From Clostridia bacterium (GTDB lineage: Bacteria > Bacillota > Clostridia > Oscillospirales > CAG-272), in the NCBI GenBank assembly GCA_017504785.1, contig JAFVQL010000081.1, positions 1 through 56,148 on the forward strand: a stretch of DNA of 56,148 nucleotides, given 5' to 3'. Below the pieces are notes generated by a model. That model was not told the origin of the DNA. It did no database searches and saw only the letters and a list, made by a program, of their open reading frames with translations. The position numbers were made by a program, and so were the translations under genes. Shown here one piece after another: positions 3,701 to 50,519 of the stretch; position 1 is the first letter of the stretch; each line of letters begins with the position of its first letter.

Positions 3701-6246
3701 TGGCTGTCGGCATCGCCGAGGAAGAAAGGATCCGCGCCGAGCGCAGACTCGAAAAGCTGGAGGCCGCAAAGCGTGCCGCCGAGAAGCTCGAAAAGGTCGA
3801 AAAGATCTCGCCCGAAAAGAAGGCGGAAATGCTTGCGCTTGCCGCTTCGGCAAACGCGGCCTCGAAGCGTGAAAGAGCCGCTCTGAAAAAGCAAAAGAGT
3901 GCCGTTAAGGCTCTGAAGCAGGAAGCACGCGCCGAAAAGCGCGCCGCCCGCCGCACGCAAAGCCAGCTCCGCGACTGGGAAAAGAAGGTCGCAAAGGCAG
4001 AGGCGACGGCGATCGTTTCCGAGGAGCGCAAGACCTTGGCGAAGTCCAAGGCAAAGCAAGCGCGCCTCGAGAAGAAGAGCGAGAAGGCACTGGAGCGTGC
4101 TTACAAGGAAGCTCTTGTCAGCGAATACAAGGCAGATAAGGCAAGAAGAAAGGCCGATTCCGCCCAAGCCGCAAGACAGAGCAAGCGCGAAAAGGAAGCG
4201 CGCATTGCAGAGCATAAGGAAGCAGCGCTTGCCATGCTCGCCTTTGCCGCCGCTATGGATAAGGAAAGCAAGCGCGAAAGAAGGGAAAAGAATGCCCTCT
4301 TGAGAGAGGTAATTCTTGAAGAGCGCAGAAAGGAAATTGCCGAAAGAAGAGCCCTCGCCGACGAAGCGAAGGCCAGAAGAAAGAGCAAGCTCGAAGAGCG
4401 CTCCGCAAAAGAGGTCGAGCTGTATGCGCGCGCCTTGGAAAGAAAGGCAATGCGCGCGGAGCAGAAGGCTCTCCTTCTCGTTCCCGTAAAGGGAAAGGCC
4501 AAGAAAAAGCTTAAGGCTTATGAGGCGGCGCTGTTTGACAGAGCCGAGGCAGACGAGGCAAGAACGCTTGCAAATACGTTGAACGGCGAGGATGCCGCAC
4601 CCGTTGCCATCGCCGCGCCTCTTAGCCGCAAGGCACAGAAACTGCAGCAAAGTGCGGATGAGGCAGTCAACAAGCAGAAGAAGGCGCATAAGCGCCTGAA
4701 TGCAGAGGCTCGCTATGCCGATAAGGTTGCGCGCCGCAAGGACGAAAGCCTGCAAAAGAAGTACGATTCCAAGATGAAAAAGCTTCAAAAGCGCGCGAGC
4801 AAGGCAGATCTTGCTGCAGAAATGGCGCAGATGAAGCTGGATGCACAGCTGTATAAGGATGGCGTAAAGCACGAGCCGACCGCTCCCGCACAGGTGCAGA
4901 ATACCGAAGCACAGGCTTCGCAGCCGAAGCATACTTACGTAGACAAGGCCGACAGAAGACTGCAAAAGAAGCAGCAGAAGGCGGCGTTTGCCCGCGAGAA
5001 GAAGGAGCTGAAGCGCGAGTTCAAGCGTTACGTCATCGAATCCAGAGTGCAGAAGAGGGATCTCAATGCGTTGCGTAAGGCGGCGCTTGCAGGTCGAATC
5101 AAGGATGAAAGACTCGCAAGAAAGCTGCAGTACGAGCAGAAGGTAGAGCAAAAGCAAAGAGTCAAGGATGAAAAGGCTTGGAAGGCCTTGGAAAAGCATG
5201 ATGAAAAGCTTACGCGCCACTACTCGTATATGAGCCTTCTCGAGCTGGATCGCAGAGATCAAGAACGCTTGAAGGTGAAGGCAGAGGAGCAGAAGAAGAA
5301 GCTCGCGCCTGCCGCCGAGACGGAGGATCCCTTCGCAAGAGGCATCTTTACGAAAAAGCTTACCCGAAGAGAGCGTCTTGCGCGCAATCGTGCGTACAAG
5401 AAGCGTGATATCAAAACGCTGAAGGCACGCTACGATATCGTGATTGCAGAGGCGAAGCGCGATCTTGCGCTTGCACTTTGCGATCTCTCCTGCACCAAGG
5501 CGAATGCAAAGCGCATTGAGGCGGAAACCAAGAAGAGGATCTGGAGGCTTTGTGCAAATAAGCGCCGTGCGCTGCAGAACGAAAAGGTGGATAACCACCG
5601 CTACTTCCGCTGCCTGCGTAAATCGAGGATCAAGCCGAAGAACTACCGTGTGGATCGCGCGGAGCTTGCCCGCTTGTACGAGAAGCTCGAAAGGCTTTTG
5701 GAAATGCGCGACAAGGTCAACGAAAGCCTCTACACCGTATATTCTTACGATTCCTATAAGAGGCTCGGCCGCGTGGATACGCCTTGGCACAAGGCATTCA
5801 TGCGCGAGAAGAAGCGCTGGCACAAGAAGCTGCGCCCCGATCTGCGCGTGATCGATTCGATGAATCTTTCCCGCCGCGATAAGCAAAAGCTGCGCGCGGA
5901 TCTTGACTGCGTTGCCACCTCTCACGCCGATATCGTGGAGACGAAATGCCGTATCCAGAAGCAGAAGCTGAAGGGCGCGGCGAAGCGCCTGCAAAAGCAG
6001 GAGATCAAGGCGATGAAGCGCGATGCGATCAAGGCACATAATCACATGAAGCGCAAGATGAACATCGCAAGAGCCAAGGCGGATAAGAGAGATTTCTGGT
6101 ACGTATCCATGCTGTCGCTCGCGATCACGCTTTCGCTGATCTGCATCTGCGTTTTGGGCTGGCATTGGTTCGGGGATAAGATCATGGGCTTCATGAATGC
6201 AAATTTCCCGAGCATCGTAACTAAGATCAAGTCACTGCTGAAATAA
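1..6246 (+). CDS. Giant Ala/Lys/Glu-rich repeat / predicted helical (coiled-coil-like) protein with one C-terminal transmembrane segment; 5'-truncated by the window edge
   Basis: Frame is open from base 1 to TAA at 6244-6246 (ORF track 55..6246, 2063 aa). Composition is highly charged and helical. Hydrophobic stretch FWYVSMLSLAITLSLICICVLGWHWFG lies about 20 aa from the C-terminus. Confidence 0.85.
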   Translation, partial: TAPEAAPEKKLSAAQRYAVAELAAALAAESKETAPEAAPEKKLTAAQRYAVAELAAALAAESKETAPEAAPEKKQTAAQRYAVAELAAALAADGYNENGEKPKKPSRAELREEKKRAYEEAELAAALAAESEETAPEAESEKKLTAAQRYAVAELAAALAAESKEGTPEIASEAAPEKKQTAAQRYAEAELAAALAADGYNEKGEKPKKPSRAELREEKKRAYAEAELAAALAEDEKRASKQKAEDAFIAFAHGGKRNAFASEEKEVYGREAAAEYYANAADPLHSNISDRKLRRAADAYISEVELASDVEGADLSADERQLRLICAASEALERSEALSGARKEELLAAAKQATKHSDDKKKQKKLDRMTASAAKREAKNADRALEEDKKNLALLEKNRDMAEAKALAAEQEAADAMERVSALRAGASNKKKLEAYSEALSASARAESARLTADTLAAEYESEKEKAIERQKAKAAMLAFAAVASAEYENSKGMPLSGSDKRKLNTAILGAQRRYDRALAAFRNAEARLSLLADAKASSSRLAAARRDAAKAEVLAADAQQRLNTLLATREATECSKALSRREKAELLALAITVTEKNDEKLKARLKKSVAAALRKEEKAARRFEKHFDRNMDRYEKRAAETEAEARVAADFAAKAKAKADKLAEKKAETEALHAAYEYALCEQSLAAEARAVADSARFQRDIEKRRAEAYKEAGEAMLALSATLTARDNEQKNSKKQAAIVLCETRKLDAAIEDANRKFEAAEKRSIAAAKNELELLERKRAKKAEIMAAHATYLEAREEAERANSKKEMLEKARIAAEGSKALKAEEKAELLSLATELSADEKNTLKAELLKKKIEYAAKKEALAEKKLAEAVSRREDSLEIQYLYQEAKAHIAEESANEKKKKAERLARRRVNRKAQKKAYKDALLEQARAERERERAEELKAKRIAKKEKSEQHKEAAAAMLAFAAAFAPIDKKKKTKAKEAEILSTVLGKPSYTGFIGTEITEAEKQYENAILAEEAARARVRALESERSTKKERKAALLAVGLAEEETIRAERRLEKLEAAKRAAEKSKALSPEEKAEMLALAASAKTAAKSKKAARKAQKKLLRAEMQKSLAEGLAADEAALAAKLKVKQLAEEEKSAQQREEIEAMLAFAAALAPIEKKKKVQAKEEKVLGTVLGKSSYTGFIGTEITEAEKQYENALLAEVTARERVRALKAERAEEKERKAALLAVGIAEEERIRAERRLEKLEAAKRAAEKLEKVEKISPEKKAEMLALAASANAASKRERAALKKQKSAVKALKQEARAEKRAARRTQSQLRDWEKKVAKAEATAIVSEERKTLAKSKAKQARLEKKSEKALERAYKEALVSEYKADKARRKADSAQAARQSKREKEARIAEHKEAALAMLAFAAAMDKESKRERREKNALLREVILEERRKEIAERRALADEAKARRKSKLEERSAKEVELYARALERKAMRAEQKALLLVPVKGKAKKKLKAYEAALFDRAEADEARTLANTLNGEDAAPVAIAAPLSRKAQKLQQSADEAVNKQKKAHKRLNAEARYADKVARRKDESLQKKYDSKMKKLQKRASKADLAAEMAQMKLDAQLYKDGVKHEPTAPAQVQNTEAQASQPKHTYVDKADRRLQKKQQKAAFAREKKELKREFKRYVIESRVQKRDLNALRKAALAGRIKDERLARKLQYEQKVEQKQRVKDEKAWKALEKHDEKLTRHYSYMSLLELDRRDQERLKVKAEEQKKKLAPAAETEDPFARGIFTKKLTRRERLARNRAYKKRDIKTLKARYDIVIAEAKRDLALALCDLSCTKANAKRIEAETKKRIWRLCANKRRALQNEKVDNHRYFRCLRKSRIKPKNYRVDRAELARLYEKLERLLEMRDKVNESLYTVYSYDSYKRLGRVDTPWHKAFMREKKRWHKKLRPDLRVIDSMNLSRRDKQKLRADLDCVATSHADIVETKCRIQKQKLKGAAKRLQKQEIKAMKRDAIKAHNHMKRKMNIARAKADKRDFWYVSMLSLAITLSLICICVLGWHWFGDKIMGFMNANFPSIVTKIKSLLK
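2893..3850 (+). repeat. Internal duplication of a ~125-aa block in the giant protein (period about 570 nt)
   Basis: MLAFAAA..PI.KKKK...TVLGK.SYTGFIGTEITEAEKQYENA...ERRLEKLEAAKRAAEK...SPE.KAEMLALAASA occurs at 2893-3275 and again at 3460-3850. Confidence 0.85.
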
Positions 6247-7213: not shown

Positions 7214-8245
7214 ATGAATCAGGATTTTTACACAGCGTTGGACCTTTTGGAAAAGGAAAAAGGAATTCCCAAGGAGTATATGATCGAGAAGATCGAGGCT
7301 GCCTTGGCCAATGCCTGCCGCAAGGAGGTCGGCCAGACCACCGTTGTGCGCGTGCAGATCGATCCCGTGAAGCAGGATATGAAGGTGTTTCAGCAGAGAG
7401 CCGTTGTGGCAGACGGAGAGGTGGAGGATCCCAAGACCCAGATCGCCCTTTCGGATGCAAAAGCGATCAGCCGCCGCCATAAGCTTGGCGGCACGGTGGA
7501 GACCGAGCTGAAGACCAAGACCTTCCGCCGCCTCAGCGCACAGGCAGGAAAGCAGATGATCATTCAGGCCATCCGCGATGCCGAGAGAGAAAGACAGACG
7601 CGCGAATACGAGGAAAAGAAGGAAGCCATTATCACGGCGATCGTGGATAAGGTGGATACCACCACGGGCAACCTTATTTTGGATACCGGCACGGGCTATG
7701 CAACGCTTATGAAGTCGGAGCAGATCCCCGGTCAGTTCCACGACGTCGGCGACCGTATCAAGGTATTTATTTCCGAGGTGAAGAGCGGAGAGACCCGCGG
7801 TCCGCTGGTAACGCTCTCTCGCGCACATCCCCATTTTGTAAAGCGTCTTTTCGAGCTTGAGATCCCCGAGATCCAGGACGGAACGATTGTGATCCGCAGC
7901 GTGGCAAGAGATGCGGGCAGCCGCACGAAGATCGCTGTGGAATCCAGAGATGAAAACGTAGATGCGATCGGCTCTTGTATCGGTAAGAACGGTATGCGTA
8001 TCGGCGCGATCCTTGCCGAGCTCGGAGAAGAGAAGATCGATATTATTCAGTACAACGAGGACCCCGTCACCTTCGTTTGCGAGGCACTTTCGCCCGCGAA
8101 GGTAATTTCCGCCGAGATGTAAGGCGAGCGCACCTGCCACGTGACCGTTGCACCCGATCAGCTTTCGCTTGCGATCGGACGCGAGGGTCAGAATGCAAAG
8201 CTTGCCGCTAAGCTCACCGGTATGAAGGTGGATATCAAGGCATAA
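7214..8245 (+). CDS. nusA: Transcription factor NusA, interrupted by an in-frame TAA at 8120-8122 (sequence error or nonsense allele)
   Basis: NTD-S1-KH1 motifs ([30 protein letters not shown]). Past the stop the same frame continues [40 protein letters not shown], the KH2 signature, to TAA at 8243-8245. Confidence 0.9.
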
Positions 8246-8277
8246 ATTTCTCTGAAAAAGATAAGGAGGGAAAAGAT

Positions 8278-8565
8278 ATGGCACAAGTGCTATCACCGCG
8301 TAAGCTCCCCGTTCGCAAATGCACGGGTTGTGCAGAGCATTTTCCGAAAATGCAGCTGATTCGTGTTTTAAGAACGCCGGAGGGCGAGATCCTTTTGGAT
8401 GCTACGGGCAAAAAGTCCGGCAGAGGCGCATATCTTTGCAAGAATCCCGCCTGCTTGAAAAAAGCGAAGAAGGCAAGGCGCCTCGAGGCATCGCTCGAAT
8501 GCGAGATCCCCGAAGAGGTTTTTGCTCGCCTGGAGGAGGAGTTAACAGGTGCAATCGAATCATGA
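8278..8565 (+). CDS. ylxR: YlxR / RnpM family RNA-binding protein
   Basis: RKLPVRKCTGC...LIRVLRTPEG...DATGKKSGRGAYLC; located between nusA and infB. Confidence 0.9.
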   Translation: MAQVLSPRKLPVRKCTGCAEHFPKMQLIRVLRTPEGEILLDATGKKSGRGAYLCKNPACLKKAKKARRLEASLECEIPEEVFARLEEELTGAIES

Positions 8566-8923
8566 TCAAAGACTGTGCGGCATGCTCGGATTTGCTATGC
8601 GTGCCGGAAAGCTTTGCATAGGAACGCCGCTCGTTTGCAAGGCACTGGGATCGAAGGGCTTTGGAGGCATTCGCCTCGTGCTCTTGAGCGCAGGTGCTTC
8701 GGAAGGAACGAAAAAGAAGATTCGCTGCAAATGCGAATTCTACGGCATGGGCCTATGGGAGATCCCGCAGGACCCCGAAGCACTTGGCAGACTTCTCGGA
8801 AAGTCGTATGCCCCCGCTGCCGTCGGCGTTTGTGATGACGGCTTCGCCAGAGAGATCGATGCCACCATGGCATTACGAAACAACGATACAGAAAGGAAGT
8901 TTCCACCCATCGGAAACCGGTGA
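8549..8923 (+). CDS. ylxQ: L7Ae/L30e-like RNA-binding protein (YlxQ)
   Basis: LGFAMRAGKL..G, ASEGTKKK and LGRLLGK motifs; conserved operon position. Confidence 0.8.
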   Translation: MQSNHDQRLCGMLGFAMRAGKLCIGTPLVCKALGSKGFGGIRLVLLSAGASEGTKKKIRCKCEFYGMGLWEIPQDPEALGRLLGKSYAPAAVGVCDDGFAREIDATMALRNNDTERKFPPIGNR

Positions 8924-8928
8924 TATAT

Positions 8929-11838
8929 ATGGCCAAAAAGACGATGAAGCTCTCGCAGCTCTCCAAGGATTTCGCAATGAAATCCAAGGACGTGCTCGAT
9001 GCCTTTAAGGACCTGGGAATGGAAAAGAAAAGCGGCGCCAATGCAGACGACGTTGAATTTGCGCTCTTCTTCCAGAAGGTAACGAAGGCAAACCAGATCG
9101 AAAACCTGGATGATTACGTAAAGGGCGTGGCAAAGATCCGCGCCGAAAAGCCCGCGGTAGAAGAAGAGAAGCCTGCCGAGGAGAAGAAGCCTGCCTTGAA
9201 GACCGAGGCGGCATCCGAAAAGAAAGAAGAAAAGGCTTCAGAGAAGGCAGAGCAGAAGCCCGCGGCAAAGGCAGAGGAAAAGCCTGCGGCGAAGGCGGAA
9301 GCGAAGCTCGCAGTGAAGGCAGAAGAAAAGCCTGCACCCAAGGCAGAGCCTCAAAGACCCGCTTACCCGATGCCCCGCCGCCTCGATAAGCCGCTTGAGC
9401 GCATCGTGCCGAAGAAGCCCGATCGCCCCGCACAGCCGCAGGGACAGAGAGGTGGCTTTGACCGCTCCCAGCAGCGCCCCGACGGCAGAGATAACCGCCA
9501 GCAGAGCCAGCAGGGCGGCCGCCGCTTTGATAACGGCTACGGCGCACGCCCGCAGGAAAATCCCTTTGCAAGAAAGCTCGACAATATGAGAAGAGAAGCA
9601 CAGGGCTTCAAGCCCGCCGGCTCGCAGACCCCCGTGCAGAAGCCCCAGCAGGCATCCACGGCGCGCCCCGCACAGCAGGCACTTCTCGAGAAAAAGCAGA
9701 AGCAGGCCGCCGCTGCCGCGGCTGTAAAGCCCGCCGCTGCCGCACCGAAGAAGGAAGAGAAGAAGGTGCAAAAGCAGCAGTTCAAGACCATTACGCCTAC
9801 CGTTAACACGCAGAACGTCAAGGGCGGCGTTAACATCGGCGGTGAGTATAACACCACGCAGCAGAAGACCCGCGTTGTCGATATGCGTACCTCGGATGTC
9901 AACCTTTCCAAGTACGACGATCGCTACAACGAGCAGTTCTATGCCATCGCAAACGGCACCGATTCCAAGGCGCAGAAGCAGAAGCTGAAGAAGCAGGATA
10001 ACCGCGGTCAGTTTGCCAAGAGCGCAAAGGATAAGGAGAGAGCCGCGCAGGAGAAGATCAAGCGCATGGAGGCCGAGCTTGCAAGAAAGAAGCAGCTGGA
10101 GATCACCGTGCCCGATGAGATCACGGTTTCCGAGCTTGCACTCCGCTTGAAGAAGAGTGCCGCAGAGGTGATCAAGCGCCCGATGCTCATGGGTGAGATG
10201 AAGGGTGTAAACGATATTCTCGACTACGGCACTGCCGAGCTGATCGCGGATGAATTCGGCGCAAAGGTCACCAAAGAGGTTGTCGTTACCATTGAAGAAA
10301 AGCTCTTTACCGAAGCAGAGGATACCGAAGAGGATCTCGTTCTTCGCGCACCCGTCGTCTGCGTTATGGGCCACGTTGACCACGGTAAGACCTCTATTTT
10401 GGACGCGATCCGCCACACGAACGTAACCCGCGGCGAGGCGGGCGGTATCACGCAGGCCATCGGTGCATACCGCGTAAAGGTACAGGATCAGGATATCACC
10501 TTCCTCGATACCCCCGGTCACGAGGCGTTTACCGCCATGCGTATGCGCGGTGCAAAGTCCACCGATATTGCGATCCTCGTCGTTGCCGCAGATGACGGCG
10601 TTATGCCCCAGACCATCGAGGCGATCAGCCACGCGAAGGCCGCAGGCATCGATATCATCGTTGCGATCAACAAGATGGATAAGCCCACCGCGAACCCCGA
10701 TAATATTCTGAATCAGCTGACACAGTATGACCTTGTGCCCGAGGCATGGGGCGGTGACGTGATCTGCGTTCCCGTTTCCGCGCTGACCGGCATGGGTATT
10801 ACGGACCTTCTTGAAAGCGTTCTGCTCGTTGCAGAGGTAAAGGAGCTTCGTGCAAATCCCAATAAGCGTGCAAAGGGTCTGGTTATCGAGTCCAGACTGG
10901 ATAAGGGCCAGGGCCCCGTTGCGACCATTCTCGTGCAGAACGGTACCTTGCATCAGGGGGATTACGTCATCGTTGGTAACGCGGTTGGCCGCGTGCACCT
11001 GATGAAGGACGATAAGGGAAGAAGCATCAAGAGTGCAGGTCCCTCCGTTCCCGTTGAGATCACCGGTCTTGACGACGTTCCGCAGGCAGGCGACGTGCTG
11101 AATGCGGTTGAGGACGAGAGAATGGCAAAGGATCTGGCAGAGCAGAGAAAAGAAAAGCTGCGCCAGGAGATCCTTGCTGCCAACGCCCGCGTAAACCTCG
11201 ACGATCTCTTCAGCCAGATCGCAGAGGGAACGCAGACGCTCAACGTCATCGTAAAGGCCGACGTGGCAGGCTCTGCCGAGGCGGTCAAGGCCTCGCTTCT
11301 CAAGCTTTCGGGTGAGGAAGTTAAGGTCAACGTGATCCACAGCGCCGTCGGCGGTATCACCGAGTCGGACGTTATGCTTGCGACCGCATCCAATGCGATC
11401 ATCGTCGGCTTTAACGTGCGCCCCGATAAGAACGCGCTGGATTCCGCAGAAAGAAACAAGGTAGATATCCGTACGCACCGCATCATCTACGAGATCATCG
11501 ACGAGATCGAGGCGGCTATGAAGGGTATGCTTGCGCCCACCTATAAAGAGGTGCTTCTCGGACATGCCGAGGTTCGCCAGACCATTCGCGTGCCCAACGT
11601 CGGCACGATCGCGGGCTCTTATATCCGTGACGGTAAGATCACGCGCCAGTCGCAGATCCGCGTTGTCAGAGACGGTATCGTTATCTTCGAGGATAAGATC
11701 TCCTCTCTGCGCCGCTTCAAGGATGACGTTAAAGAGGTCGGAGAAAGCTACGAATGCGGTGTCGGACTTGAAAAGTTTAACGATATCAAGGTCGGCGATA
11801 TACTGGAAGCCTTCGTGATGGAAGAGGTACAAAGATAA
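8929..11838 (+). CDS. infB: Translation initiation factor IF-2
   Basis: G-domain [25 protein letters not shown]; C-terminal [19 protein letters not shown]; long low-complexity N-terminus. Confidence 0.97.
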
Positions 11839-11956
11839 TATTTTGCAAACTATGCTTTGCAAAATAATGGATTTTTCCTTTAGATCGCGCATTTTTTCGT
11901 GAGAAAAAGTGCGCGATCTTTTTTTGTTTTTACGCTTCTTTTTTCTTTTGCGGGCG

Positions 11957-12175
11957 GAAACGGCGACCTGCGATAAAGCAGGTGCGCCGAACGATGTTTG
12001 CCCTTGCGTGCAAATGATGTTGCCTTCGGCAATGATGTTTACTGCGTAAGTGATGTTACGCTTGACGGCGTAATGGGCAAACATCACATCACTCGCGACC
12101 AACGGGCGCAACATCATTACGAACGAAGTGAGTAACATCACTTCTTTACCACCCGAAAACAAAAACATTGTATAA
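11957..12175 (+). repeat. Dispersed structured element, copy 1 (lacks the 3' tail)
   Basis: cggcgacctgcgataaagcaggt...(TGATGT-hairpin)x3...gggcaaacatcacatcactcgcgaccaacggg...acatca; homologous to 28069-28365 and to the reverse complement of 43470-43783. Confidence 0.9.
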
Positions 12176-12250
12176 TTTTTTTGTGAAAATTGCATGGGTT
12201 TTCGCGCGTTTTTTCTCATCCCTCGTGCGCGCGCATTTTTTAAAACCCTC

Positions 12251-28068: not shown

Positions 28069-28365
28069 ACGGCGACCTGCGATAAAGCAGGTCGGCCGAA
28101 CGATGCTTGCCCTTACGGGCAAGTGATGTCGGCTTCGCCTAATGATGTAGCCTACGGCAATGATGTTGTGCCTTCGGCACAGTGGGCAAGCATCACATCA
28201 CTCGCGACCAACGGGAGCAACATCATTACGAACGAAGTGAGTAACATCACTTTTGCGTAAGCAAAAACATCACTTATATTCCTTCCAAAAACAAAATATC
28301 GTATAACACACTATACCTTGCAAGCAAGATCGTGTGAAAAGGGGCGAGAAAATCTCGTCCCTTTT
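28069..28365 (+). repeat. Dispersed structured element, copy 2 (ends in a terminator-like hairpin)
   Basis: TGATGT at 28124, 28143, 28161; ACATCA at 28195, 28220, 28244, 28267; tail atatcgtataacacactataccttgcaa and hairpin aaaaggggcgaga-aaa-tctcgtccctttt shared with copy 3. Confidence 0.9.
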
Positions 28366-28376
28366 CTGCTTTGATA

Positions 28377-29567
28377 TTATAAAAATCTCGTCAGCGGATG
28401 CGTCCAGATGCCGTAGGCATTTTCATAGTAGACCTTGAAGCCGCCTGCGTTTTTGGGGATCTTGCGCGTGATGACCCCGCTTTTCTTTTCCGCCTCGGTG
28501 AGAGGCTCGTATTTTGCGAGGGGGCGGGGGCCTTCGCCCGCGATGCGAAAATCCATATAATGGATCTTGCTGTTTTCGTCGCAGGGATCGGCGGTGATCG
28601 TGATCGAGCCGTTTTCGATCTTGAAGTCGGTTTTTGCGCGAAGGAAGGCAAAGCTTACCTCGCATCCGTTTTCCTTCAGCCTTGCGGTGTAGTAGCCGCA
28701 TTCCTCCGGCTCAAAGGCGCGCACGCTTCTGCCGCACACCTCGTAGGCTTCTGCCAAGACGCCGTTTTTGTAAATTTGCACGGTGTCCTCCGCATCGGTA
28801 AAGGTTGCGAGCGTGGCGATCTGCCCAAGCAGATAGTTGGAAAAGTCGCCGTTATCCACCTCGATCGCGCGGGGGGCTTCACCGTCCTTATAGCCCTTTA
28901 AAAGCGCGGCGTCCGCTTCGTTTAGGGGCGGAACGGAGGCAAGGTGCTCGTAGCGCACGAGATGAAAGAGCTTCCACGCTTCAAAAAAATCCGAAAGGGG
29001 ATAGCGCACGCGGCGGCAACAGGGGCGAACGGCCTCGCTCACCTCGATCTCGCAAATTTTGCCGTCCCCGTCCTTTAAAATATCCGTGACGAGAGCCACG
29101 TGGCTGCGCTCCTTGCCGCATGCATAGAGAATATCCAAAAGGCGGATATCCTCCGCCGTATAGCAGCCGCGGTCGGCAATGCGGCGCATGCCGGGGATCT
29201 TCTCCCAAAGCAGGGTGCTCACGCGGTAGGGAATGCCGAGGGCATAGCGCACGAGCGCGACGCAAACGACGCCGTAGTTACAGCCGTAAGACAAGCCCTG
29301 CCCCGGGGCGTAGAGCGTGCTGTACGGATTTCGGATCGCGGAAAGGAAGGTGCGGATCTGCGCGTTTTCGGTAACGTATTTATCGGTCTTTTCGGTGGCG
29401 GAAAAGGGAAAGCCGTGAACTTGCGTGCCCGCGGGGAAAAAGCAGTTTTTTCCGTTTATATAGGTGGGAACGTCACGCACGGGCGTGAAAACGAAATCGG
29501 TCAGCTGCAGGGCGCGGGCAAGCGCGGCGCGCTCGCCGCCGTTTTTCGGAAGGGTGCTGATCGGCAT
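28377..29567 (-). CDS. Hypothetical protein, possible NlpC/P60-like Cys-His N-terminal domain
   Basis: 396-aa ORF with AGGAGG RBS; YGVVCVALVRYALG ... SHVALV pattern. Confidence 0.7.
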   Translation of the reverse strand: MPISTLPKNGGERAALARALQLTDFVFTPVRDVPTYINGKNCFFPAGTQVHGFPFSATEKTDKYVTENAQIRTFLSAIRNPYSTLYAPGQGLSYGCNYGVVCVALVRYALGIPYRVSTLLWEKIPGMRRIADRGCYTAEDIRLLDILYACGKERSHVALVTDILKDGDGKICEIEVSEAVRPCCRRVRYPLSDFFEAWKLFHLVRYEHLASVPPLNEADAALLKGYKDGEAPRAIEVDNGDFSNYLLGQIATLATFTDAEDTVQIYKNGVLAEAYEVCGRSVRAFEPEECGYYTARLKENGCEVSFAFLRAKTDFKIENGSITITADPCDENSKIHYMDFRIAGEGPRPLAKYEPLTEAEKKSGVITRKIPKNAGGFKVYYENAYGIWTHPLTRFL

Positions 29568-35173: not shown

Positions 35174-35226
35174 CGGAGCTTTTGAATAAGAAAAATCCTC
35201 TGTTTTATTCATTCATAAATCAAAAT

Positions 35227-35273
35227 AAAGAACAGCAAAGGACCGAAAAATCACGTCCTTTGCTGTTCTTTTT
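35227..35273. terminator. Probable bidirectional intrinsic terminator between xpt and the ABC operon
   Basis: aaagaacagcaaaggac-11 nt-gtcctttgctgttcttt, between convergent genes. Confidence 0.8.
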
Positions 35274-43469: not shown

Positions 43470-43783
43470 AAAAGGGACGAGATTTTCTCGTCCCTTTTGC
43501 ACTACACCTTGCATTGCAAGGTATAGTGTGTTATACGATATTTTCTTTTCGGATGGTAAAGGAATGATGTTTTTGCTTACGCAAAAGTGATATTATTCGC
43601 CTTGCTCATCGTGATGTTGCTCCCGATGGTCGCGAGTGATGTGATGTTTGCCCATTGTGCCGAAGGCACAACATCACAGCCAAAGGCTACATCATTAGGC
43701 GAAGCCGACATCACTTGCCCGTGGGGGCAAACATCGTTCGGCTGACCTGCTTTATCGCAGGTCGCCGTTTCTCGTCCCTTTTG
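43470..43783 (-). repeat. Dispersed structured element, copy 3 (minus strand), bracketed by a 16-bp direct repeat
   Basis: Reverse complement aligns with copy 2 over its whole length; tttctcgtcccttttg at 43484-43499 and 43768-43783. Confidence 0.9.
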
Positions 43784-43801: not shown

Positions 43802-46800
43802 TTAGTGCGGGGATATGGAATTCAGCGGAACGACACCCGATGCAGCGTCCGAGAGCCACGCATCGACCGCATCCTTGGGATAGGTAATAATAACGTCGCC
43901 CACCGTATTCAGATCGAGCGTTACTTCGCCTGCTTCAGCATTCAAGATCTCTCCGTTGAAGCTTACTGTATCGGGATGGCCGAAGCGCCATGCCCAATGC
44001 AAGGTCCTTAAGGTGTACTCACCGTAGGGAAGATGGTCGATATCCATATAACCGATATCGAAGATGGTAAAGGTAACGTCAATATTTGCGGTGGCGGTTC
44101 CTGCCTTTCCTATAAGACGGAATACGAACGCCTGCGGGTCATTTTCCACCGTTTCAAATCCTTCCACGTGAAAGCGCCTTGTCGTGGGAATGACCTCTGC
44201 ATATACGTAGACCGTCTGACCCGCCAAAGAAACCTCGGGATCGGGGAGAGAGATCACCATGTTGTCGTTTGAAAGCCAGCCTGCGGGGACGCTCTGACGC
44301 TCGCCGTCTCCGATGGCGTAATACCAAGCGTTCAGAATGTATCCGTCGTTCCAAAGCACAAGTGTTTTTGCTTTAGGCTTTCCCGCACCGATCGATACCG
44401 TATCGGTAGGCTCGGCAATCGTACCGCCAACGCCGATGATCTGATACCGGTAATTCACGCTGAGACCCTGATAGGAGCAGATAATTTCCTGATCGTCGCT
44501 TGCCGTCTTTGCCACCTGGGAGCTGCCGTTGGTAAGCGTGTATCCGTCAATTGTCTTCGCAATATCGGCAATGGAGACCATTTGCTGATATTTTGCCTCG
44601 CCCTCGACCGCGTCGGCAAGCTCTTGCGTAGTTCCTTCTCTATAATACTTTACAGTATATTTGTACGTTTTACGCTTATAGTGAAGCTTCAACACAAGTC
44701 CCTTTTTGAGAGTACCCGTGTCGGGATCCACCGCGGTAGCAGTCGCAGTACCGCTTGTAATGTTGAGGGGATTATCCGGGTCGAACTCGAAATGCTGTAT
44801 CTCTCTGATATGCTCGTCTTGCTCGGCATCTATTTCGGTTCCATCTGCTACCTTGATCTGCTGCGGGACGTTAGGGAAGTTGTAGATCAAATATTCAGTT
44901 CCGTCCACGGACTCAATATAATAGAGGACCTGATAAAGAGCCTGACCGTGTTCGTCAGTCCACTTGAAGATCGCATTGTTTTGGTCGGAATCCGTTGTAA
45001 GGATAAGGTCCTGGATAAAGTAGTCGGGGGACATATCCGTAATAATGGTCCAAATCTCTTCTTCATCTTCAGACGACAGATCGCCGTATTGCTTCTCTGC
45101 CGCTTGAATGATATTCTCTTTTGTAATACCTTCGCGGAAGGATACCGCAACGGATGCTGCCTGCGTTTTGAGATCTTCGCCGCGAATTTCGTGCGGAATG
45201 GTGAGAGAAATAGAGTTTCCGCCCAAAATGGATGCAAACGTTTCATTGACAAAGTTGTGCGTAACGGTGTACTCGACCGTATCGAGAGATGAATAAACGA
45301 AAAGGAAAACGTTTTCGTCTTCATTCGCACTCATTACCATGGTGTGAGATCGGATATCGGGGAAGAAATTCGCTCTGTAATCTTCGTCAAGATCCTCGCC
45401 AACCTTTGCTTTGAAGGTCTTTGTAATACCCGCCAAGGATGAGCCGCCGATGGACTCTGCGATATCTACGTATTCTTCGCCGTTAAAATAAACGTATCGA
45501 ACGCTGTATTTTACGGCAGTACGTGTCGTCCAACCGGCATAGATCTCCATATCGAACTTCACGGACATCGTGTTAAAGTCAAATCGCACCGGAGTTTCGT
45601 CAACGAGATAATACCAACCGGTGAAAATATTGTGATCCTCATCGTCAATGCCGGGATGCTCTTGGTCGGGAAGATTGCCGGGATGATCGCCGCCCACGCC
45701 GGGGTGCTGAATATGCAAATAGTTGGGCTCGTCAATGAACGAGTTAAATAAAACCGTCTGTGTATCAAAAAGCGTGGTTTTTGATTTATCGGTGTAGATA
45801 TTGACCGTGTAGGAGCAGGTCTCCCATTTTGCATAGAGAACAAGTCCGCCCTCGGGCATCGTTGTGCTGCCGTCAAAGACAAATTCCGTTCCGTCTGCAC
45901 AGTTGGGCGTTGAATACCAGCCGGCGAATCGGATAGCGCCCGTTTCCTTCGTGGAAGGATAGGGAACGTCTTTCGCCATAAGCTCAAGGGAAGCGCCGAT
46001 CGGCTGCTGATACTTCAAAACCTTCGTATGCGTCGAAAGCGTCGTACCCAAGCTGACAAATTCCAGCTTGTATTCTTCTCTTAAGTAGTAAAGAGAAACC
46101 TCGTAGTCCGTTTCGTCCTTGATCTGACCGCCCGAAACTGCGGGATCGGACTCAAATTTTTTAAATCCGCGAATATCGAAGAAGTCCTCATCCGGTGTCA
46201 GATAACTATACTTCGCAGAAATGGAGTTGTTCAGATCGAAGGAATAGGTTTTGTAAACCTTATCCGCTTCGCCGAGAGATTCGAGGTAATAGTTGATCGT
46301 GTAAATGTTTTTTGCAGTACCTACGTCTTCGTTAAACGTGATGTCTGCGGGCGGCATAAAGGGAACGTATACGAGAACCTCTCCAAAATACGTTTCGTCC
46401 CTATCTTTCCAGCGCTCACCTTCGGTGAAATGCTCTTCGATACTCGTCCATATCTTGGATATATCGGCATTGTATTTAGCCCTGAACTGCAGGAAGTTTT
46501 GTGTCTGCTTCGTCTGGCAGTCGGCTGTACACGTATGTTCTATGAGCTGACACGTTCTTTTGCAGTCGCCGTTATGCGTATGGGCTTCCTTGCCGCAGTT
46601 GTGCGAGTAGCAGTTAATATTGTGGCGATGCGCTTCCTTGCCGCAAGCGTAGACGCAATCGCCCTCGCCGTGAACGTGTCGATCGATCGTACAGGTGCAT
46701 CCGCTTGTATGGTCGTGCTCTGTGAGAGGGCAAGTACAATTTCCGTCGCCGTGCGTGTGAATTTCAAGTCCGCAGATAGCGGTTGCCGCGGCGGATGCTG

Positions 46801-49030
46801 TGGAACCGTCCTGCCAGGCGGGGTTAGATATTCCGGAGGCTGTAACACCGTTGTAGTTGGTGCCTGTACCAAGATAGAACCACTGGTTATGAACGTACAA
46901 GAAGTTGTAGATCGTTCCGTTGAACCACCCGATTCTTATGCGGTAAACGTAACCGTTCAGAGGGCCTGCGATCTTGCTCTGCAACGACGTATACGCGTTT
47001 TTCTGGTTGTTATCGGTAAGAGAGGCTGCTTCCTTGAGTGTGTTGCGTGAGAAGCAGGTATCGTGGTGAAGCGCATGCTCGACCTTTTCACAGTCGCTGT
47101 TTGCGCCTGTGCCGTGAACGTGGTAGGGAATGCTGCAGCAGGATCCATCGTGCACGTGTTCTGTCAATGAACAGCATGCGCCAACGTGAAGGTGCTCTTC
47201 TTTTTCGCAGACCAATTCGGCGTTTCCGCATGCTTCGGTGTGCACGTGTGCCTCGAGGCCGCAGTCGGCACTGTTGCACGCTTCGGTGTGTTGATGACCA
47301 ACCACGTCGTTGGTGATACAAACCGCTTCGCCGTTAAACGTCATTGTGTAGTATCTTCTGAGGTAATAAGCGTTTATAGCGGTCGTGCCGTCGGGGGAAA
47401 TCGGAACGTCTTTGTCCGAAAGCGCTTCGCAGAACTCAAAGCAGCTTGCATCGGGAATGGAAAGGTCATCCACGGCGCTTGCCTTTGGATCATCACCGAG
47501 AGGAACGCCGGTAACGGTTTTGAAGCTGTCGAGCGTAAAGCCGGAGTCGTTGGCATTTTCAAGCCAATAAATTACCGTGTAGGACGTTGTGCCCGCCTCC
47601 CACTGTGCTTGATAATTCAGGTTATGCTCAACGGAGTTGATGATGTATCCTCCGTTCGCATTCGTGGGGTAGGGGTGCTCCGTTACCTGTTCGGTATCGT
47701 CCGGGTCATTTTTTACAGATTTCAGCTCCCAGTTCAGGAAGGCATAGCCGGGGCGTGTCGGGGGCGGAAGAACGACGGTCGTTTTGAAGCGGGCATAGTG
47801 GTTTGTAACGCCGTATGCTTCGTTATTGTCGTTCAGATCGAAATTTACGAAATAGTAGATCCTATCGTAATAAATTTCTACGGCAAACGAGCCGTCTTCG
47901 GAAATGGCGAGATCGGAATCGTAGTAAAGAGGGGAAAAGCCGAGGCGCGGCGTATCGAGTCCCTCGCCAATGCGGGCGTTCGCAATGCCGGTCATTGTGA
48001 TCGTTTCGGCAAGGGTGTATTCGTCGTCGTAAAGATTCTGCTCGAAAACCATAACCGAGTACATAACCTCTTGGGGGATGAAATATACGTCGATCGTGAC
48101 GTTATCCACTTGGTTGTCAAACTGAATGCTGGTTGCCAAAACGTATTCGTCTATATCCTCTTCTTCTTCGTTTTCAGGCCGTGTTTTGTCGCCGTAGGCG
48201 ATCTTGTTTCTTTGTATATAGCTTTCTAACTCGGCTTCATCTTTGGGCGCACCCGTAACGTATTTTGCCTGGTCAACCCTTACGTAGGGAAGATAACCGA
48301 TTTCAAGCGGTGTGGCTACCGTGCCTGTATAGGAAGTGTTTTCGGGGAGCGTGACCGTAAACACGTTCGCTGCATTTTCGCCGTCAAGGTTGTCGAGCGC
48401 CGGGTTTTTGTGACGGTACGCATAGTTGATCTCTATCTGGAAAAGAGAGAAAGCCCCCTCCAAAAGATTCGGCGCATCCGCCATTGCGCGGGCGGATAAG
48501 GGTGCCAATGCGGATTTTTCTTTCGCCGCCCCCGCCTCCGCGGTTTCTGTTGCCGCTGCCTTGCTTTCGGACGCGGGAAGGATCACCTTTAGTATATCGC
48601 TGACGTATTTATCGTCATCGACCGTAACGATACAGCGCAAGCAGGCGGCGCCGTCAACGGTCGCCGCATTGTAAAGCAATGCTTCGGTGATCACCGCGAA
48701 GCTGAATACGTAACCGCTGACGGTTGCCCATCTTCCTTCGCCGATCATGACCTGCCAAGAATATCTGGCATCATTGCCAAGAGAGGGGTCCAGCGTTGTG
48801 AATGCGTAAAGCTTGCCGCCCTTTGCAAGCGAGACCGGATTGCTGTCCTCGCAAGAAAGCTTTACCATTCCTTCTATATAGCTTTCGGTATTGTCTTGCG
48901 TTTGCTCCGGGGCGGGCGCCGCTGCGGTGCTGCCGTCATCTGCTACGGAAAAGACCTTGATAGGAAACGCCGTCACAACGTCCATAAGAAGGACCAGAGC
49001 CAAAAGCAAGGAAAATATTTTGTTTTTCAT
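43802..49030 (-). CDS. Large secreted adhesin-like protein (1742 aa): signal peptide, InlB B-repeat-like and MucBP-like domains, Cys/His-rich repeat array
   Basis: MKNKIFSLLLALVLL... signal; PTRPGYAFLNW...QAQWE, RFAGWYST...LVLYAKWE and FTGWYY...IYAGW repeats; YTVIYWLE / YTVKYYRE modules; about 12 HxH-Cys units; AGGAGG RBS. Confidence 0.85.
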   Translation of the reverse strand: MKNKIFSLLLALVLLMDVVTAFPIKVFSVADDGSTAAAPAPEQTQDNTESYIEGMVKLSCEDSNPVSLAKGGKLYAFTTLDPSLGNDARYSWQVMIGEGRWATVSGYVFSFAVITEALLYNAATVDGAACLRCIVTVDDDKYVSDILKVILPASESKAAATETAEAGAAKEKSALAPLSARAMADAPNLLEGAFSLFQIEINYAYRHKNPALDNLDGENAANVFTVTLPENTSYTGTVATPLEIGYLPYVRVDQAKYVTGAPKDEAELESYIQRNKIAYGDKTRPENEEEEDIDEYVLATSIQFDNQVDNVTIDVYFIPQEVMYSVMVFEQNLYDDEYTLAETITMTGIANARIGEGLDTPRLGFSPLYYDSDLAISEDGSFAVEIYYDRIYYFVNFDLNDNNEAYGVTNHYARFKTTVVLPPPTRPGYAFLNWELKSVKNDPDDTEQVTEHPYPTNANGGYIINSVEHNLNYQAQWEAGTTSYTVIYWLENANDSGFTLDSFKTVTGVPLGDDPKASAVDDLSIPDASCFEFCEALSDKDVPISPDGTTAINAYYLRRYYTMTFNGEAVCITNDVVGHQHTEACNSADCGLEAHVHTEACGNAELVCEKEEHLHVGACCSLTEHVHDGSCCSIPYHVHGTGANSDCEKVEHALHHDTCFSRNTLKEAASLTDNNQKNAYTSLQSKIAGPLNGYVYRIRIGWFNGTIYNFLYVHNQWFYLGTGTNYNGVTASGISNPAWQDGSTASAAATAICGLEIHTHGDGNCTCPLTEHDHTSGCTCTIDRHVHGEGDCVYACGKEAHRHNINCYSHNCGKEAHTHNGDCKRTCQLIEHTCTADCQTKQTQNFLQFRAKYNADISKIWTSIEEHFTEGERWKDRDETYFGEVLVYVPFMPPADITFNEDVGTAKNIYTINYYLESLGEADKVYKTYSFDLNNSISAKYSYLTPDEDFFDIRGFKKFESDPAVSGGQIKDETDYEVSLYYLREEYKLEFVSLGTTLSTHTKVLKYQQPIGASLELMAKDVPYPSTKETGAIRFAGWYSTPNCADGTEFVFDGSTTMPEGGLVLYAKWETCSYTVNIYTDKSKTTLFDTQTVLFNSFIDEPNYLHIQHPGVGGDHPGNLPDQEHPGIDDEDHNIFTGWYYLVDETPVRFDFNTMSVKFDMEIYAGWTTRTAVKYSVRYVYFNGEEYVDIAESIGGSSLAGITKTFKAKVGEDLDEDYRANFFPDIRSHTMVMSANEDENVFLFVYSSLDTVEYTVTHNFVNETFASILGGNSISLTIPHEIRGEDLKTQAASVAVSFREGITKENIIQAAEKQYGDLSSEDEEEIWTIITDMSPDYFIQDLILTTDSDQNNAIFKWTDEHGQALYQVLYYIESVDGTEYLIYNFPNVPQQIKVADGTEIDAEQDEHIREIQHFEFDPDNPLNITSGTATATAVDPDTGTLKKGLVLKLHYKRKTYKYTVKYYREGTTQELADAVEGEAKYQQMVSIADIAKTIDGYTLTNGSSQVAKTASDDQEIICSYQGLSVNYRYQIIGVGGTIAEPTDTVSIGAGKPKAKTLVLWNDGYILNAWYYAIGDGERQSVPAGWLSNDNMVISLPDPEVSLAGQTVYVYAEVIPTTRRFHVEGFETVENDPQAFVFRLIGKAGTATANIDVTFTIFDIGYMDIDHLPYGEYTLRTLHWAWRFGHPDTVSFNGEILNAEAGEVTLDLNTVGDVIITYPKDAVDAWLSDAASGVVPLNSISPH

Positions 49031-49046: not shown

Positions 49047-49628
49047 TTAAGGCGTCGAAATCCGTTCTGTCAGCATACTGCCTTTTCCTTCAACCTCAAC
49101 GACTTCAACGGCGGGCCATGCCGCGTGAACTGCGTCGATGGGATCTGCCTGGATTGAGGTGGTGAGAAGCTGAAGGCGAAGCTCATAGCCTGCTTTTTCG
49201 GTTTCCAGCCGTGTGGCTTGCGCCAGGATCGTTACGGATTCTCCGGGGAGAAGCACCTTCTCGTAATAATAGAATCCGTCACTCTCTGCGTGAAACCAAT
49301 TCTCTGTTATAAAGGTGATATCGAAATCTACGCCTTCCTTCGGGACGTCGGAAGAAATCGTGTGCTCGTCTTCCACGGAGATCCAGTTGACGATCGCAAG
49401 GGCGCGAACGTAAACGGGGATGTTACCCACGTTTGTGATTGCCTCTTGATCCTCCAGCTGGATCCTGGCAACGGGGGGGATAAACGTGTTGTTCGTTGTG
49501 CCGGTTCGGGTCGCGATATACGCAATGGTTCCGCCGATCGCCACGGATAACAAGAGCGTTGAAATTATGGATAGGACGATCGCGCGCCTTCCTCGGTGTT
49601 TAAAGAAGTCAATGATACGTTGTTTCAT
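49047..49628 (-). CDS. SipW-dependent-type signal peptide protein (TasA/BsaA-like, putative minor subunit)
   Basis: AIGGTIAYIATRTGTTNNTF; NVGNIPVYVR; W..ESDGFYYYEKVL.PGES; SIQA...AW. Confidence 0.8.
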   Translation of the reverse strand: MKQRIIDFFKHRGRRAIVLSIISTLLLSVAIGGTIAYIATRTGTTNNTFIPPVARIQLEDQEAITNVGNIPVYVRALAIVNWISVEDEHTISSDVPKEGVDFDITFITENWFHAESDGFYYYEKVLLPGESVTILAQATRLETEKAGYELRLQLLTTSIQADPIDAVHAAWPAVEVVEVEGKGSMLTERISTP

Positions 49629-49637
49629 ATACCCTCC

Positions 49638-50312
49638 TTACGGAGATGCGCTATCGTCTTCAGGCCAGCCCCAAGCGGTGGTGGGATCAGGGGAGTTGCT
49701 GTCCGCCTGCACCGATTGGCAAATAAGCTTGAATTGAATAGAGCTGTTTTTAAATTCGTTGCCCATATCGGGGGAGAAGAACACCGTGTCGAAAAGCGAT
49801 GCGGTCTGCTCTTCGGATGCAAGGGCAAATTTATAGTAATAATATCCCTCGTGATATACCCAAGGGCTTTCAGCGTCTGTCTTGAAATTGCAAACGATGA
49901 GATCTTCCCAGCCGGGGGATATTTCGTGTTCGGATCGAAGAATGTTTTTTTCTGTTTTGATTCTGACGTAAATGGGAATCGTTCCGCTGTTTTTTGCGCC
50001 AACGCCCCCATAGGTGTAAATGCCGGCAGGCATAATTCGTATGGGGTCCGCAGACCACGCATAATTGCCGTCGTCGCTTACCTCGATAAGCGATACGTCG
50101 AGCGAGCCGGTGACGATTCTGTTGTTTTCCGATACCGCGGAATCCGTGAAGTACGCAAAGGTTTGAGCAGCAAAGATGGCGGCGAGCGCGATCATGGCGA
50201 TGATCGGCGCAATAAGAAAATAAGGGCTGCGGTGCTTTTTCGCATTCTTCTTGACGGGCTCGGGCGTGTGCTCGGTCGTATCGGTGATAGGTGTCATAGA
50301 ATGAACGTCCAT
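49638..50312 (-). CDS. SipW-dependent-type signal peptide protein (TasA/CalY-like)
   Basis: QTFAYFTDSAVSENNRIVTGSLDVSL; IMPA; KNSGTIPIYVR; EGYYYY; QSVQA...AWG. Confidence 0.85.
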   Translation of the reverse strand: MDVHSMTPITDTTEHTPEPVKKNAKKHRSPYFLIAPIIAMIALAAIFAAQTFAYFTDSAVSENNRIVTGSLDVSLIEVSDDGNYAWSADPIRIMPAGIYTYGGVGAKNSGTIPIYVRIKTEKNILRSEHEISPGWEDLIVCNFKTDAESPWVYHEGYYYYKFALASEEQTASLFDTVFFSPDMGNEFKNSSIQFKLICQSVQADSNSPDPTTAWGWPEDDSASP

Positions 50313-50446
50313 CTTTTCCTCCTCCTTTGCTGAATTTTTAGGGTAGTGCGTTTTTTTCTTTGTAGATCGTTTCGTTTTGGGTGAGAGGGTGTAGCGTAGG
50401 CCATCCTAACAAAGCCTTGCCACAACCGTCACTTCGTTTGCTTTTT

Positions 50447-50482: not shown

Positions 50483-50519
50483 CATAGAAAAAATCCGAGG
50501 GGTGTCAGTTTTGTTGATT

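Follow-up and report, generated by a model that had tools for sequence, protein, structure and literature searches.

A dispersed two-armed hairpin array of gut and rumen Clostridia that resembles the Gut-1 RNA motif and adjoins tRNA and four-helix-bundle protein genes

The stretch of DNA analyzed here, the 56,148-nucleotide (nt) contig JAFVQL010000081.1 of a Clostridia bacterium (hereafter, the window), is an ordinary piece of chromosome with 53% G+C that carries, among other genes, nusA, rnpM, ylxQ, infB, miaA, recA, recX and fba, and within its 56 kb it contains three copies of an intergenic repeat of 220-310 nt, each with a head hairpin, an array of TGATGT boxes and hairpins, and then an array of ACATCA boxes and hairpins (Table 1). 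Copy 1 lies just 3' of the terminator of infB, which belongs to a nusA-rnpM (ylxR)-ylxQ-infB operon (7214-11838) arranged as in other Firmicutes; copy 2 lies behind a flavin-reductase-like gene and is convergent with an open reading frame (ORF) of 396 aa; and copy 3 lies behind the gene of a 1742-aa surface-type protein (43802-49030), ahead of fba. In all three cases, the orientation of the copy is that of its upstream gene. An initial annotation of this DNA had proposed three copies, on the +, + and - strands, respectively, and our searches bear this out, with the limits refined as in Table 1.

The three-copy alignment has a mean column identity of 79%, with invariant blocks that include the head hairpin ACGGCGACCTGCGATAAAGCAGGT and the center CATCACATCACTCGCGACCA. 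The head hairpin, ACCTGC-GATAAA-GCAGGT, was already recognized as conserved in the initial annotation; it is identical in all three copies, and extends to an 11-bp stem with one bulged base. It is followed by what we call the '>' arm, in which a first CGATGY box, additional to those annotated before, precedes three TGATGT boxes, each with a 3-7-bp hairpin behind it, and then by the '<' arm, with three to five ACATCA boxes. In the '>' arm, a strand X together with the first box can pair in two ways, either with a local X', giving hairpin H1, or with a distal X' and box', giving an 11-bp long-range helix, P1, which in copy 2 encloses three RTGATGT-hairpin units. The P1 strands are GATGTTTGCCC/GGGCAAACATC in copies 1 and 3 and GATGCTTGCCC/GGGCAAGCATC in copy 2, in agreement with the covarying helix that had been annotated, and the hairpins likewise differ between copies while staying paired, with TTACGC-TTGACG-GCGTAA in copy 1 and TGTGCC-TTC-GGCACA in copies 2 and 3 at the same position.

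The copies also differ in extent. Copy 1 has neither the fourth '<' unit nor the terminal hairpin and lacks most of the tail, while copies 2 and 3, like two related loci outside the window (L049 and L024, see below), end in a terminator-like hairpin. We note that a consensus terminator scan did not flag this hairpin in copy 2, which has only four T. On the - strand inside the tail of copy 2, a promoter scan found a promoter-like site (TTCACA-17-TATAGT), which by eye is kept in L049, and not clearly in copy 3 or L024.

Table 1. Positions of the three copies and of their parts in the window (position 1 is the first nucleotide of the contig); L-numbers denote related loci outside the window, described in the text
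Feature	Position	Strand	Remarks
Copy 1, shorter repeat unit	11960-12175	+	Start is the start of the shared sequence
Copy 1 '>' arm	11989-12092	+	P1 strands 11993-12003 and 12075-12085
Copy 1 '<' arm	12086-12140	+	Three ACATCA boxes
Copy 2, whole repeat unit	28069-28377	+	Ends set by the 97.1% identical L049 copy
Copy 2 head hairpin HP0	28070-28098	+	11 bp, one bulge on the 3' strand, 6-nt loop GATAAA
Copy 2 '>' arm	28098-28201	+	Box1+X, local X', three RTGATGT-hairpin units, distal X'+box1'; Gut-1-like part
Copy 2 P1 long-range helix, 5' strand GATGCTTGCCC	28102-28112	+	Alternative local pairing with 28117-28123
Copy 2 P1 long-range helix, 3' strand GGGCAAGCATC	28184-28194	+	
Copy 2 '<' arm	28191-28272	+	ACATCA boxes, each followed by a hairpin; includes TTTTGC-GTAA-GCAAAA at 28251-28266
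Copy 2 tail	28273-28336	+	Common to copy 3, L049 and L024; contains TATAAC
Copy 2 terminator-like hairpin	28337-28365	+	A run, 8-bp GC-rich stem, TTTT; belongs to the repeat
Copy 3, whole repeat unit	43470-43768 (starts at 43768)	-	88% identical to copy 2 over 299 nt
Copy 3 '>' arm	43636-43739	-	P1 strands 43725-43735 and 43643-43653
Copy 3 '<' arm	43565-43647	-	
Copy 3 terminator-like hairpin	43470-43498	-	
16-nt direct repeat of the 5' half of the copy 3 terminal hairpin	43768-43783	-	Partner 43484-43499, 100% identical; just outside the 5' end of copy 3

Searching the window for TGATGT-N9-14-RTGATGT-N9-14-RTGATGT returns three matches, compared to 0.00 expected from 100 shuffles, and searching for ACATCA-N14-22-ACATCA returns six, compared to 0.02 expected from shuffles. 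Exactly three full copies are found by nhmmer, by BLAST and by a covariance model with its filters off, and the other matches in the window at E < 0.1 are solely each copy's own inverted arm on the opposite strand. On the '>' arms, the covariance model R1 scores 113.5, 103.4 and 104.6 bits for copies 1, 2 and 3, respectively, and it scores 29.4 bits on the - strand of the copy 2 '<' arm. A fourth, partial copy considered at 35179-35227 proved to be an unrelated terminator region. Coding sequence was likewise rejected, as the unit lengths vary between 17 and 24 nt and do not preserve a frame, and the three copies have different short ORFs.

Scanning species-representative genomes with the three-box pattern gave at least 120 loci, with full flanks for 80 of them, and of the 120 listed here (L001-L120), nhmmer assigns 22 to the same family as the window copies. 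Running R1 on the window and on 34 of the listed loci (the 22 from nhmmer and 12 other Clostridia-like ones) added L058 and L111, and L027 looks by eye like a degenerate member, giving a total of at least about 25 related loci among those listed. All listed family loci, and the fecal contigs discussed below, are gut or rumen Clostridia assemblies or human fecal contigs, and the labels among the family loci listed are Ruminococcaceae, Oscillospiraceae, Acutalibacteraceae, Candidatus Limivicinus, Ruminococcus, Eubacteriales and "Clostridia bacterium". The other approximately 95 listed loci (11 from Collinsella and about 85 others) fall outside the family, being coding tandem repeats (for example, L050, L090 and L113) or unrelated sequence, and this could be taken to mean that the pattern in the window is itself a chance cluster, a low-complexity or coding tandem repeat, or an assembly artefact. 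Such an origin is excluded, however, by the zero matches expected in the window shuffles, by the alignment of the three copies over their full 220-310 nt, by the occurrence of related copies, with covariation, in about 25 independent assemblies among the loci listed, and by unit lengths that keep no reading frame. As for the Collinsella/Coriobacteriaceae matches (L001, L025, L031, L039, L057, L064, L068, L074, L080, L105 and L119), two of them, L025 and L068, were read, and upstream of a gene they have a conserved stretch that contains four TGATGT words and is not made of hairpins.

The hairpins between the boxes vary widely in sequence and retain their pairing. Across the window and the related loci, nearly all of the 74 spacers between '>' boxes are perfect 3-7-bp stems of widely different sequences, with 313 Watson-Crick, 5 G-T and 9 A-C pairs by a heuristic count, and 41 of the 74 loops are TTC (21), TGC (13) or TAC (7). 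The '<' units are the reverse-complement version of this unit, with GAA, GCA or GNRA-type loops, and thus both strands of the element look alike, because it is a quasi-inverted repeat; both strands of copy 2 also fold well compared to shuffles (z = -7.95 on the + strand and -5.25 on the - strand).

Covariation was assessed in an alignment of 17 '>' arms (A4), aligned to a covariance model and thus fitted to a structure that came from these same sequences. In this alignment, 93.3% of cells pair, compared to 76.1% after shuffling, a percentage that the fitting inflates, and 17 of the 23 pairs change on both sides. None of five measures is reached in any of 500 shuffles, although the sequences are related and these counts are therefore not probabilities, and sliding the partner by 1-3 columns as a control brings the pairing down to 29-45%. 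P1 alone is 95.7% paired, with 7 of its 11 pairs changed on both sides (for example, TTTGCC/GGCAAA, TGTTCC/GGAACA and TTTGCT/AGCAAA), and where copies 1 and 3 have U-A and copy 2 has C-G, L049 has the intermediate U-G. H1 (X/X'), the local hairpin that competes with P1, is likewise supported, being 93.1% paired, with 4 of 7 pairs changed on both sides.

The boxes themselves change in concert between the two arms. Most loci have TGATGT/ACATCA, L121 and the second L020 copy have TGATAT/ATATCA with TTATATTCGCC/GGCGAATATA as P1, and L122 has TGAAAT/ATTTCA with TTAATCCTT/AAGGATTAA as P1 (L121 and L122 are introduced below); the exceptions are L107, with TGAAGT vs ACATCA and arms approximately 110 nt apart, and L078 (1490-1760). 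In the latter, a TGATGT-type array on the - strand stands back to back with a TGAAAT array on the + strand, with one hairpin between them, and this second array ends in a terminator. By reading, box numbers are equal outside and inside P1, usually three or four, and the minimum-energy folds of 13 elements give nested box:box' helices with branching hairpins (a "rod") in nine cases, whereas that of L112 is P1-type; the inverted arrays can thus pair into a stem. An extension of the box pairing in copies 1-3 was rejected, as by reading the purine before the '>' box mismatches the pyrimidine after the predicted '<' partner. In L007, the head hairpin 5' of the arm at 1466-1568 (- strand) has an unrelated sequence and the same geometry as that of copy 2, with an 11-bp stem, a single bulged base on the 3' strand, and a loop of 4-6 nt, depending on the loop-closing pair, compared to 6 nt in the window.

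The initial annotation could not assign the element to a named family, and here our results differ from it. At the Rfam gathering threshold there is no match anywhere in the window, including to Gut-1 (RF01706), the curated gathering score of which is 50 bits. In E-value mode, however, positions 28098-28171 of copy 2 match Gut-1 with 28 bits (E = 0.0021), i.e., below this cut-off, over model positions 1-77 of 77, with UGAUGU in the linker where the model consensus has UGAAAU; the remaining matches in the window all have E > 1 and were treated as chance. Nine TGATGT-type loci score 35.2-45 bits against the same model, and three loci exceed its cut-off, namely L122 (65.0 bits), L121 (59.1 bits) and the second array of L078 (56.3 bits). 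All three have the head hairpin and the P1 helix, and L121 and L122, which have the inverted arm as well, show the whole architecture of the window element. Judged by sequence, the '>' arm in the window thus appears to be a divergent, sub-threshold relative of Gut-1, and the comparison shows the published Gut-1 motif to be one arm of a larger two-armed, multi-copy element. This relationship lowers the novelty of the element and does not refute the earlier reading of it.

In both Gut-1 and the window element, tandem short hairpins are split by a conserved 6-7-nt linker, the first hairpin of Gut-1 corresponds to the local X/X' hairpin, and the habitat, gut Clostridia, is shared. The Rfam model spans three hairpins (H1 and two further ones), whereas the long-range helix, the fourth hairpin, the complementary second arm, the head hairpin and the tail are absent from it. 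Gut-1 was described by Weinberg et al. in 2010 as a likely noncoding RNA, not cis-regulatory, found solely in human gut sequences, and the available part of that description makes no mention of multiple copies, tRNA linkage or gene linkage (PMC2864571). The motif has thus been an orphan since 2009-2010, known from gut metagenomes, with no organism, context or function stated in that part of its description (PMC2864571). A divergent form of it is now placed in a chromosome, and tied to tRNA 3' flanks and to S23p/IVP four-helix-bundle genes, as described below.

The ends of the repeat can be fixed from a near-identical copy elsewhere. L049 (1446-1754) is 97.1% identical to the whole of copy 2 over 310 nt, with unrelated flanks on both sides, and no L049 sequence outside the shared repeat resembles the window; this fixes the ends of the repeat, and means that the terminal hairpin travels with it. 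Similarly, L007 and L032, from different assemblies, have identical arms and unrelated 5' flanks; the identical copies adjoin a gene for an extracytoplasmic function (ECF)-type sigma factor in one assembly and a gene for an RsgI-like anti-sigma factor in the other (L007 1703-2281 and L032 2-1345). Eight of the 22 listed family loci are no more than approximately 400 nt away from where the contig ends, which is the behavior expected if a repeat breaks assemblies. With copy 2 as a DNA query, there was no match in the plasmid or phage collections.

Direct repeats flank the element in three of the ten regions searched, and in none of the other seven. In L021, 33 nt, the whole of a terminator hairpin, stand on both sides of the element (270-302 and 489-521); copy 3 has the 16-nt repeat of Table 1; and at copy 1 there is a weak 12-18-nt repeat of the infB terminator (11886-11897 and 12230-12241). 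These repeats are too long and too variable for ordinary target duplication, and none of the ten regions has the constant-length target-site duplication of a MITE, a miniature transposable element with inverted repeats. By reading, there are also no terminal inverted repeats between the head and terminator-like hairpins at the ends defined by L049 and copy 2, such that the inverted arms are internal to the element and not at its true ends. We conclude that these are dispersed, probably mobile, intergenic cassettes of gut and rumen Clostridia. The earlier proposal of a structured RNA or non-autonomous mobile element under selection for structure is supported, both by the covariation in A4 and by the near-identical copies in unrelated flanks.

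Many of these observations would also be consistent with a repeat that acts at the level of DNA, akin to repetitive extragenic palindromes (REP), bacterial interspersed mosaic elements (BIME), REPINs or MITEs, in which the boxes and mini-hairpins would work in single-stranded or cruciform DNA, recognized by a transposase, a recombinase, a structure-specific nuclease, or a nucleoid or topoisomerase protein, and the arms would be the ends of a collapsed mobile element. We rank this as the main rival explanation, while considering it rather unlikely. The stems are almost purely Watson-Crick, and the element is symmetrical, each strand reading as (TGATGT-hairpin)n and then (ACATCA-hairpin)n; on the other strand, the TTC, TGC and TAC loops become GAA, GCA and GTA closed by C-G, and GNA loops are a very stable DNA mini-hairpin type. 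Near-identical copies in unrelated flanks, direct repeats of the neighboring terminator hairpin at some copies, and assemblies that break at the element all fit such a repeat. In contrast, the lack of a terminal inverted repeat and of a constant target duplication argues against it, as do the U-G intermediate in P1 on the + strand of L049 and the preferred orientation of the copies relative to the upstream gene (see below). Moreover, no transposase, RAYT, integrase, reverse transcriptase or Y1 transposase domain was found among the window proteins.

The REP/BIME/REPIN elements of proteobacteria are short extragenic palindromes in clusters of alternating orientation, numerous, downstream of genes and transcribed into 3' untranslated regions (UTRs), all of which recalls the window element. 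REP stems are, however, conserved in sequence within a genome and associated with a RAYT transposase, whereas in the window element the stems vary freely between units and copies and the linker box alone is constant. Pneumococcal BOX elements and other modular MITE-like repeats have variable internal tandem units between distinct end modules, are intergenic and fold stably, and we know of no mobilizing enzyme for BOX elements or for the window element. BOX modules of 45-60 nt have neither the box-plus-mini-hairpin unit nor a link to PF05635 (see below), and to our knowledge there is no sequence relation between BOX and the window element, which we set apart from each other by description.

A first link of the family is to tRNA genes. 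Nine of the 22 listed family loci come immediately after a tRNA gene (for Ser, Leu, Arg, Gln or Thr) followed by a long hairpin that resembles a terminator, with the '>' arm first in eight of the nine, and L121 is arranged likewise; the window itself has no tRNA gene. By reading, the orientation relative to the upstream gene or tRNA is the same in 18 cases, divergent in 3 (L024, L007 and L055) and unclear in 8, which by our own arithmetic corresponds to a two-sided sign test value of approximately 0.0015 for 18 vs 3. The GC skew keeps the same sign across the whole window, yet copy 3 follows its own gene, which, again, weighs against an element acting in DNA. For copies 2 and 3, a terminator scan found no complete terminator in the stretch from the upstream stop codon to the element, and L047 sits between era and recO, in their direction.

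A second link is to genes of the PF05635/TIGR02436 family of four-helix-bundle proteins (S23p/IVP, the 23S rRNA intervening-sequence protein), which the initial annotation had named among the genes to look for beside further copies. Such a gene starts 40-60 nt behind the arrays in four listed loci: L051, with a protein that scores 98.3 bits on Pfam and 106.2 bits on NCBIfam; L096, where the first 48 residues are 89.6% identical to L051 before the locus ends; L038, where the gene is broken by a frame change; and L036, where by eye the first codons alone are visible before the contig end. Searching the phage collection with the L051 protein by tblastn returned two records, both unverified human fecal contigs (L121 and L122), and in each of them the arrays, with their full architecture, stand just ahead of the PF05635 gene.

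In the plasmid collection, the same protein matched 28 records, 10 of which we inspected (L123-L132; NZ_OY725736, NZ_AP025289, NZ_CP147018, NZ_CP024791, NZ_LR882964, NZ_CP024790, AP018309, NZ_CP128401, NC_019759 and NZ_CP042327), with cyanobacteria, Bacteroidota, Chloroflexota, a spirochaete and Monoglobus as hosts. None of these ten loci has the hairpin arrays. In seven of them, however, at least four 9-mers of the upstream flank recur in the downstream flank when the latter is reverse-complemented, and these shared words are inverted tandem repeats, mostly of heptamers such as AATTCGT, AATTCAA, TTAGTGA and CGTAAAT; by eye, L130 and L132 have the same inverted repeats at the 7-mer level, and L123 has a short inverted repeat alone. 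In L124 (Treponema saccharophilum pTS1), approximately 280 nt of purine-rich tandem repeats (GAAAGNTGAAAG type) and then their complement lie upstream of the four-helix-bundle gene (640-1000), with the complement-type repeat again downstream of it (1340-1450). Several of the ten PF05635 genes stand inside defense operons (hsdS-hsdR, drmD-MmeI, helicase-methylase and DUF1156-HEPN).

The same gene family occurs in the intervening sequences (IVS) of 23S rRNA. In the Coxiella IVS, an S23p ORF is preceded by heptameric repeats, which vary in number, and the IVS is excised by RNase III (PMC4990558). Our literature searches for the element, or for arrays around PF05635 genes, found these heptameric repeats alone, in the available part of the Coxiella IVS paper (PMC4990558). 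The family of the window element thus shares with these IVS an adjoining gene of the same family, and its RTGATGT/ACATCAY arrays could pair into a long stem, as the inverted short-word arrays of the PF05635 cassettes in other phyla could. They differ in that the window copies have no gene, and their boxes are spaced by mini-hairpins rather than contiguous; and in their sites, which are tRNA trailers and 3' UTRs for the element and helix 25 or 45 of 23S rRNA for the IVS. Rfam finds no rRNA in the window, and the copies lie between protein-coding genes.

Taking these comparisons into account, our preferred, if tentative, reading counts the window copies as members, without a gene, of a family of cassettes akin to the IVS, the box arrays of which would fold in the transcript of the upstream gene and so insulate or process the insert. 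Such a cassette consists of a head hairpin, about four RTGATGT heptamer boxes, each with a 4-6-bp mini-hairpin, and an equal-sized ACATCAY array with hairpins, with the PF05635/TIGR02436 gene directly behind the arrays in fuller relatives. The cassette would land in spacers that are transcribed, such as intercistronic gaps, 3' UTRs and tRNA trailers, and would mostly have the same direction as the gene upstream. In the transcript, each arm would fold on itself and the two arms on one another, giving a compact stem with branches, either a multiloop closed by P1 or a rod of box:box' helices with branching hairpins. We liken this stem to the inverted tandem-heptamer arrays that bracket PF05635 genes, and to the IVS stem of 23S rRNA that RNase III removes; by insulating or processing the insert, possibly through RNase III, the fold would allow it to be tolerated by, and conceivably to benefit, its host.

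Several observations weigh against this reading. The window has no PF05635 gene (tblastn of the L051 protein, E limit 1), and in the Clostridia cassettes both arms are on the same side of that gene, upstream of it, whereas arms bracket it in other phyla and in the rRNA IVS. Box helices of this kind, 6-7 bp long and broken up by junctions, differ from the classic substrates of RNase III. The strong terminator between infB and copy 1, together with the terminator-like hairpins ahead of the arrays in the nine tRNA-linked loci, means that read-through from upstream may be low, and three loci are divergent from the neighboring gene. With regard to the pairing, its percentage in A4 is inflated, and this quasi-inverted repeat folds well on both strands. 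G-U pairs are rare and the strand signal is weak, with 13 G-U vs 6 A-C in A4 and 5 vs 9 in the heuristic count, and a purely DNA-level element would look no different; these counts do not assign a strand.

It is also conceivable, although in our view improbable, that the element belongs to the Gut-1 class as a small RNA, either stand-alone or processed, i.e., a trans-acting scaffold or sponge in which single-stranded UGAUGU boxes between hairpins would bind a multimeric RNA-binding protein, possibly the pentameric four-helix-bundle protein. Each arm has four to five equally spaced identical boxes, all boxes of an element are of one sequence type, which fits a common partner, and some copies (copies 2 and 3, L049 and L024) end in a terminator-like hairpin. 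Both the listing of Gut-1 as a likely noncoding RNA that is not cis-regulatory (PMC2864571) and the homopentamer reported for the Xanthomonas S23p protein (PMC4990558) would be compatible with such a scaffold. However, promoter scans show no promoter-like site on the + strand upstream of copies 1-3, and in the tRNA-linked loci the gap from the upstream terminator-like hairpin to the first box is too small to hold one. It would be unusual for a trans-acting RNA to have many copies per genome and hairpins that vary freely, and the complementary second arm would sequester the boxes.

Returning to the IVS-like reading, the inverted tandem-repeat arrays that bracket PF05635 genes in several phyla suggest a logic in common with the IVS of 23S rRNA. 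In its widest form, which taken as a whole we regard as a long shot, Gut-1 RNAs, TGATGT arrays, S23p-carrying IVS and the arrays of tandem heptamers that surround four-helix-bundle genes in cyanobacteria, Bacteroidota, Chloroflexota and spirochaetes would form one class of selfish cassettes. The 7-nt boxes may be cis sites of a pentameric four-helix-bundle protein, with one box per subunit, and the inverted arrays may fold in the host transcript so that, at the level of RNA, the insert is either excised or insulated. The cassette could then settle in rRNA, tRNA trailers, 3' UTRs or defense operons without harm, and the window copies may be gene-less, trans-dependent derivatives. If this common logic holds, the nature of Gut-1 and the purpose of the S23p/IVS genes become testable; otherwise, the element is a well-defined new repeat family that breaks gut metagenome assemblies and should be masked or modeled.

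Among the neighbors of the copies, the 396-aa ORF (28377-29567, - strand) has no Pfam or NCBIfam match, and its stop codon abuts the 3' end of copy 2; a TnpB/omega-RNA arrangement was rejected, as this ORF lacks a family match and the other copies lack such a neighbor. The two very large ORFs of the window, at 55-6246 (2063 aa) and 43802-49030 (1742 aa), have almost no family matches, the sole one being a weak Listeria-Bacteroides repeat in the second. Adjoining this 1742-aa repeat protein gene is a cluster (49047-52604) in which a SipW-type signal peptidase (51783-52604, - strand) is joined by three small proteins; of these, two have SipW-dependent signal peptides and two are weakly BsaA/TasA-like, below the curated cut-off.

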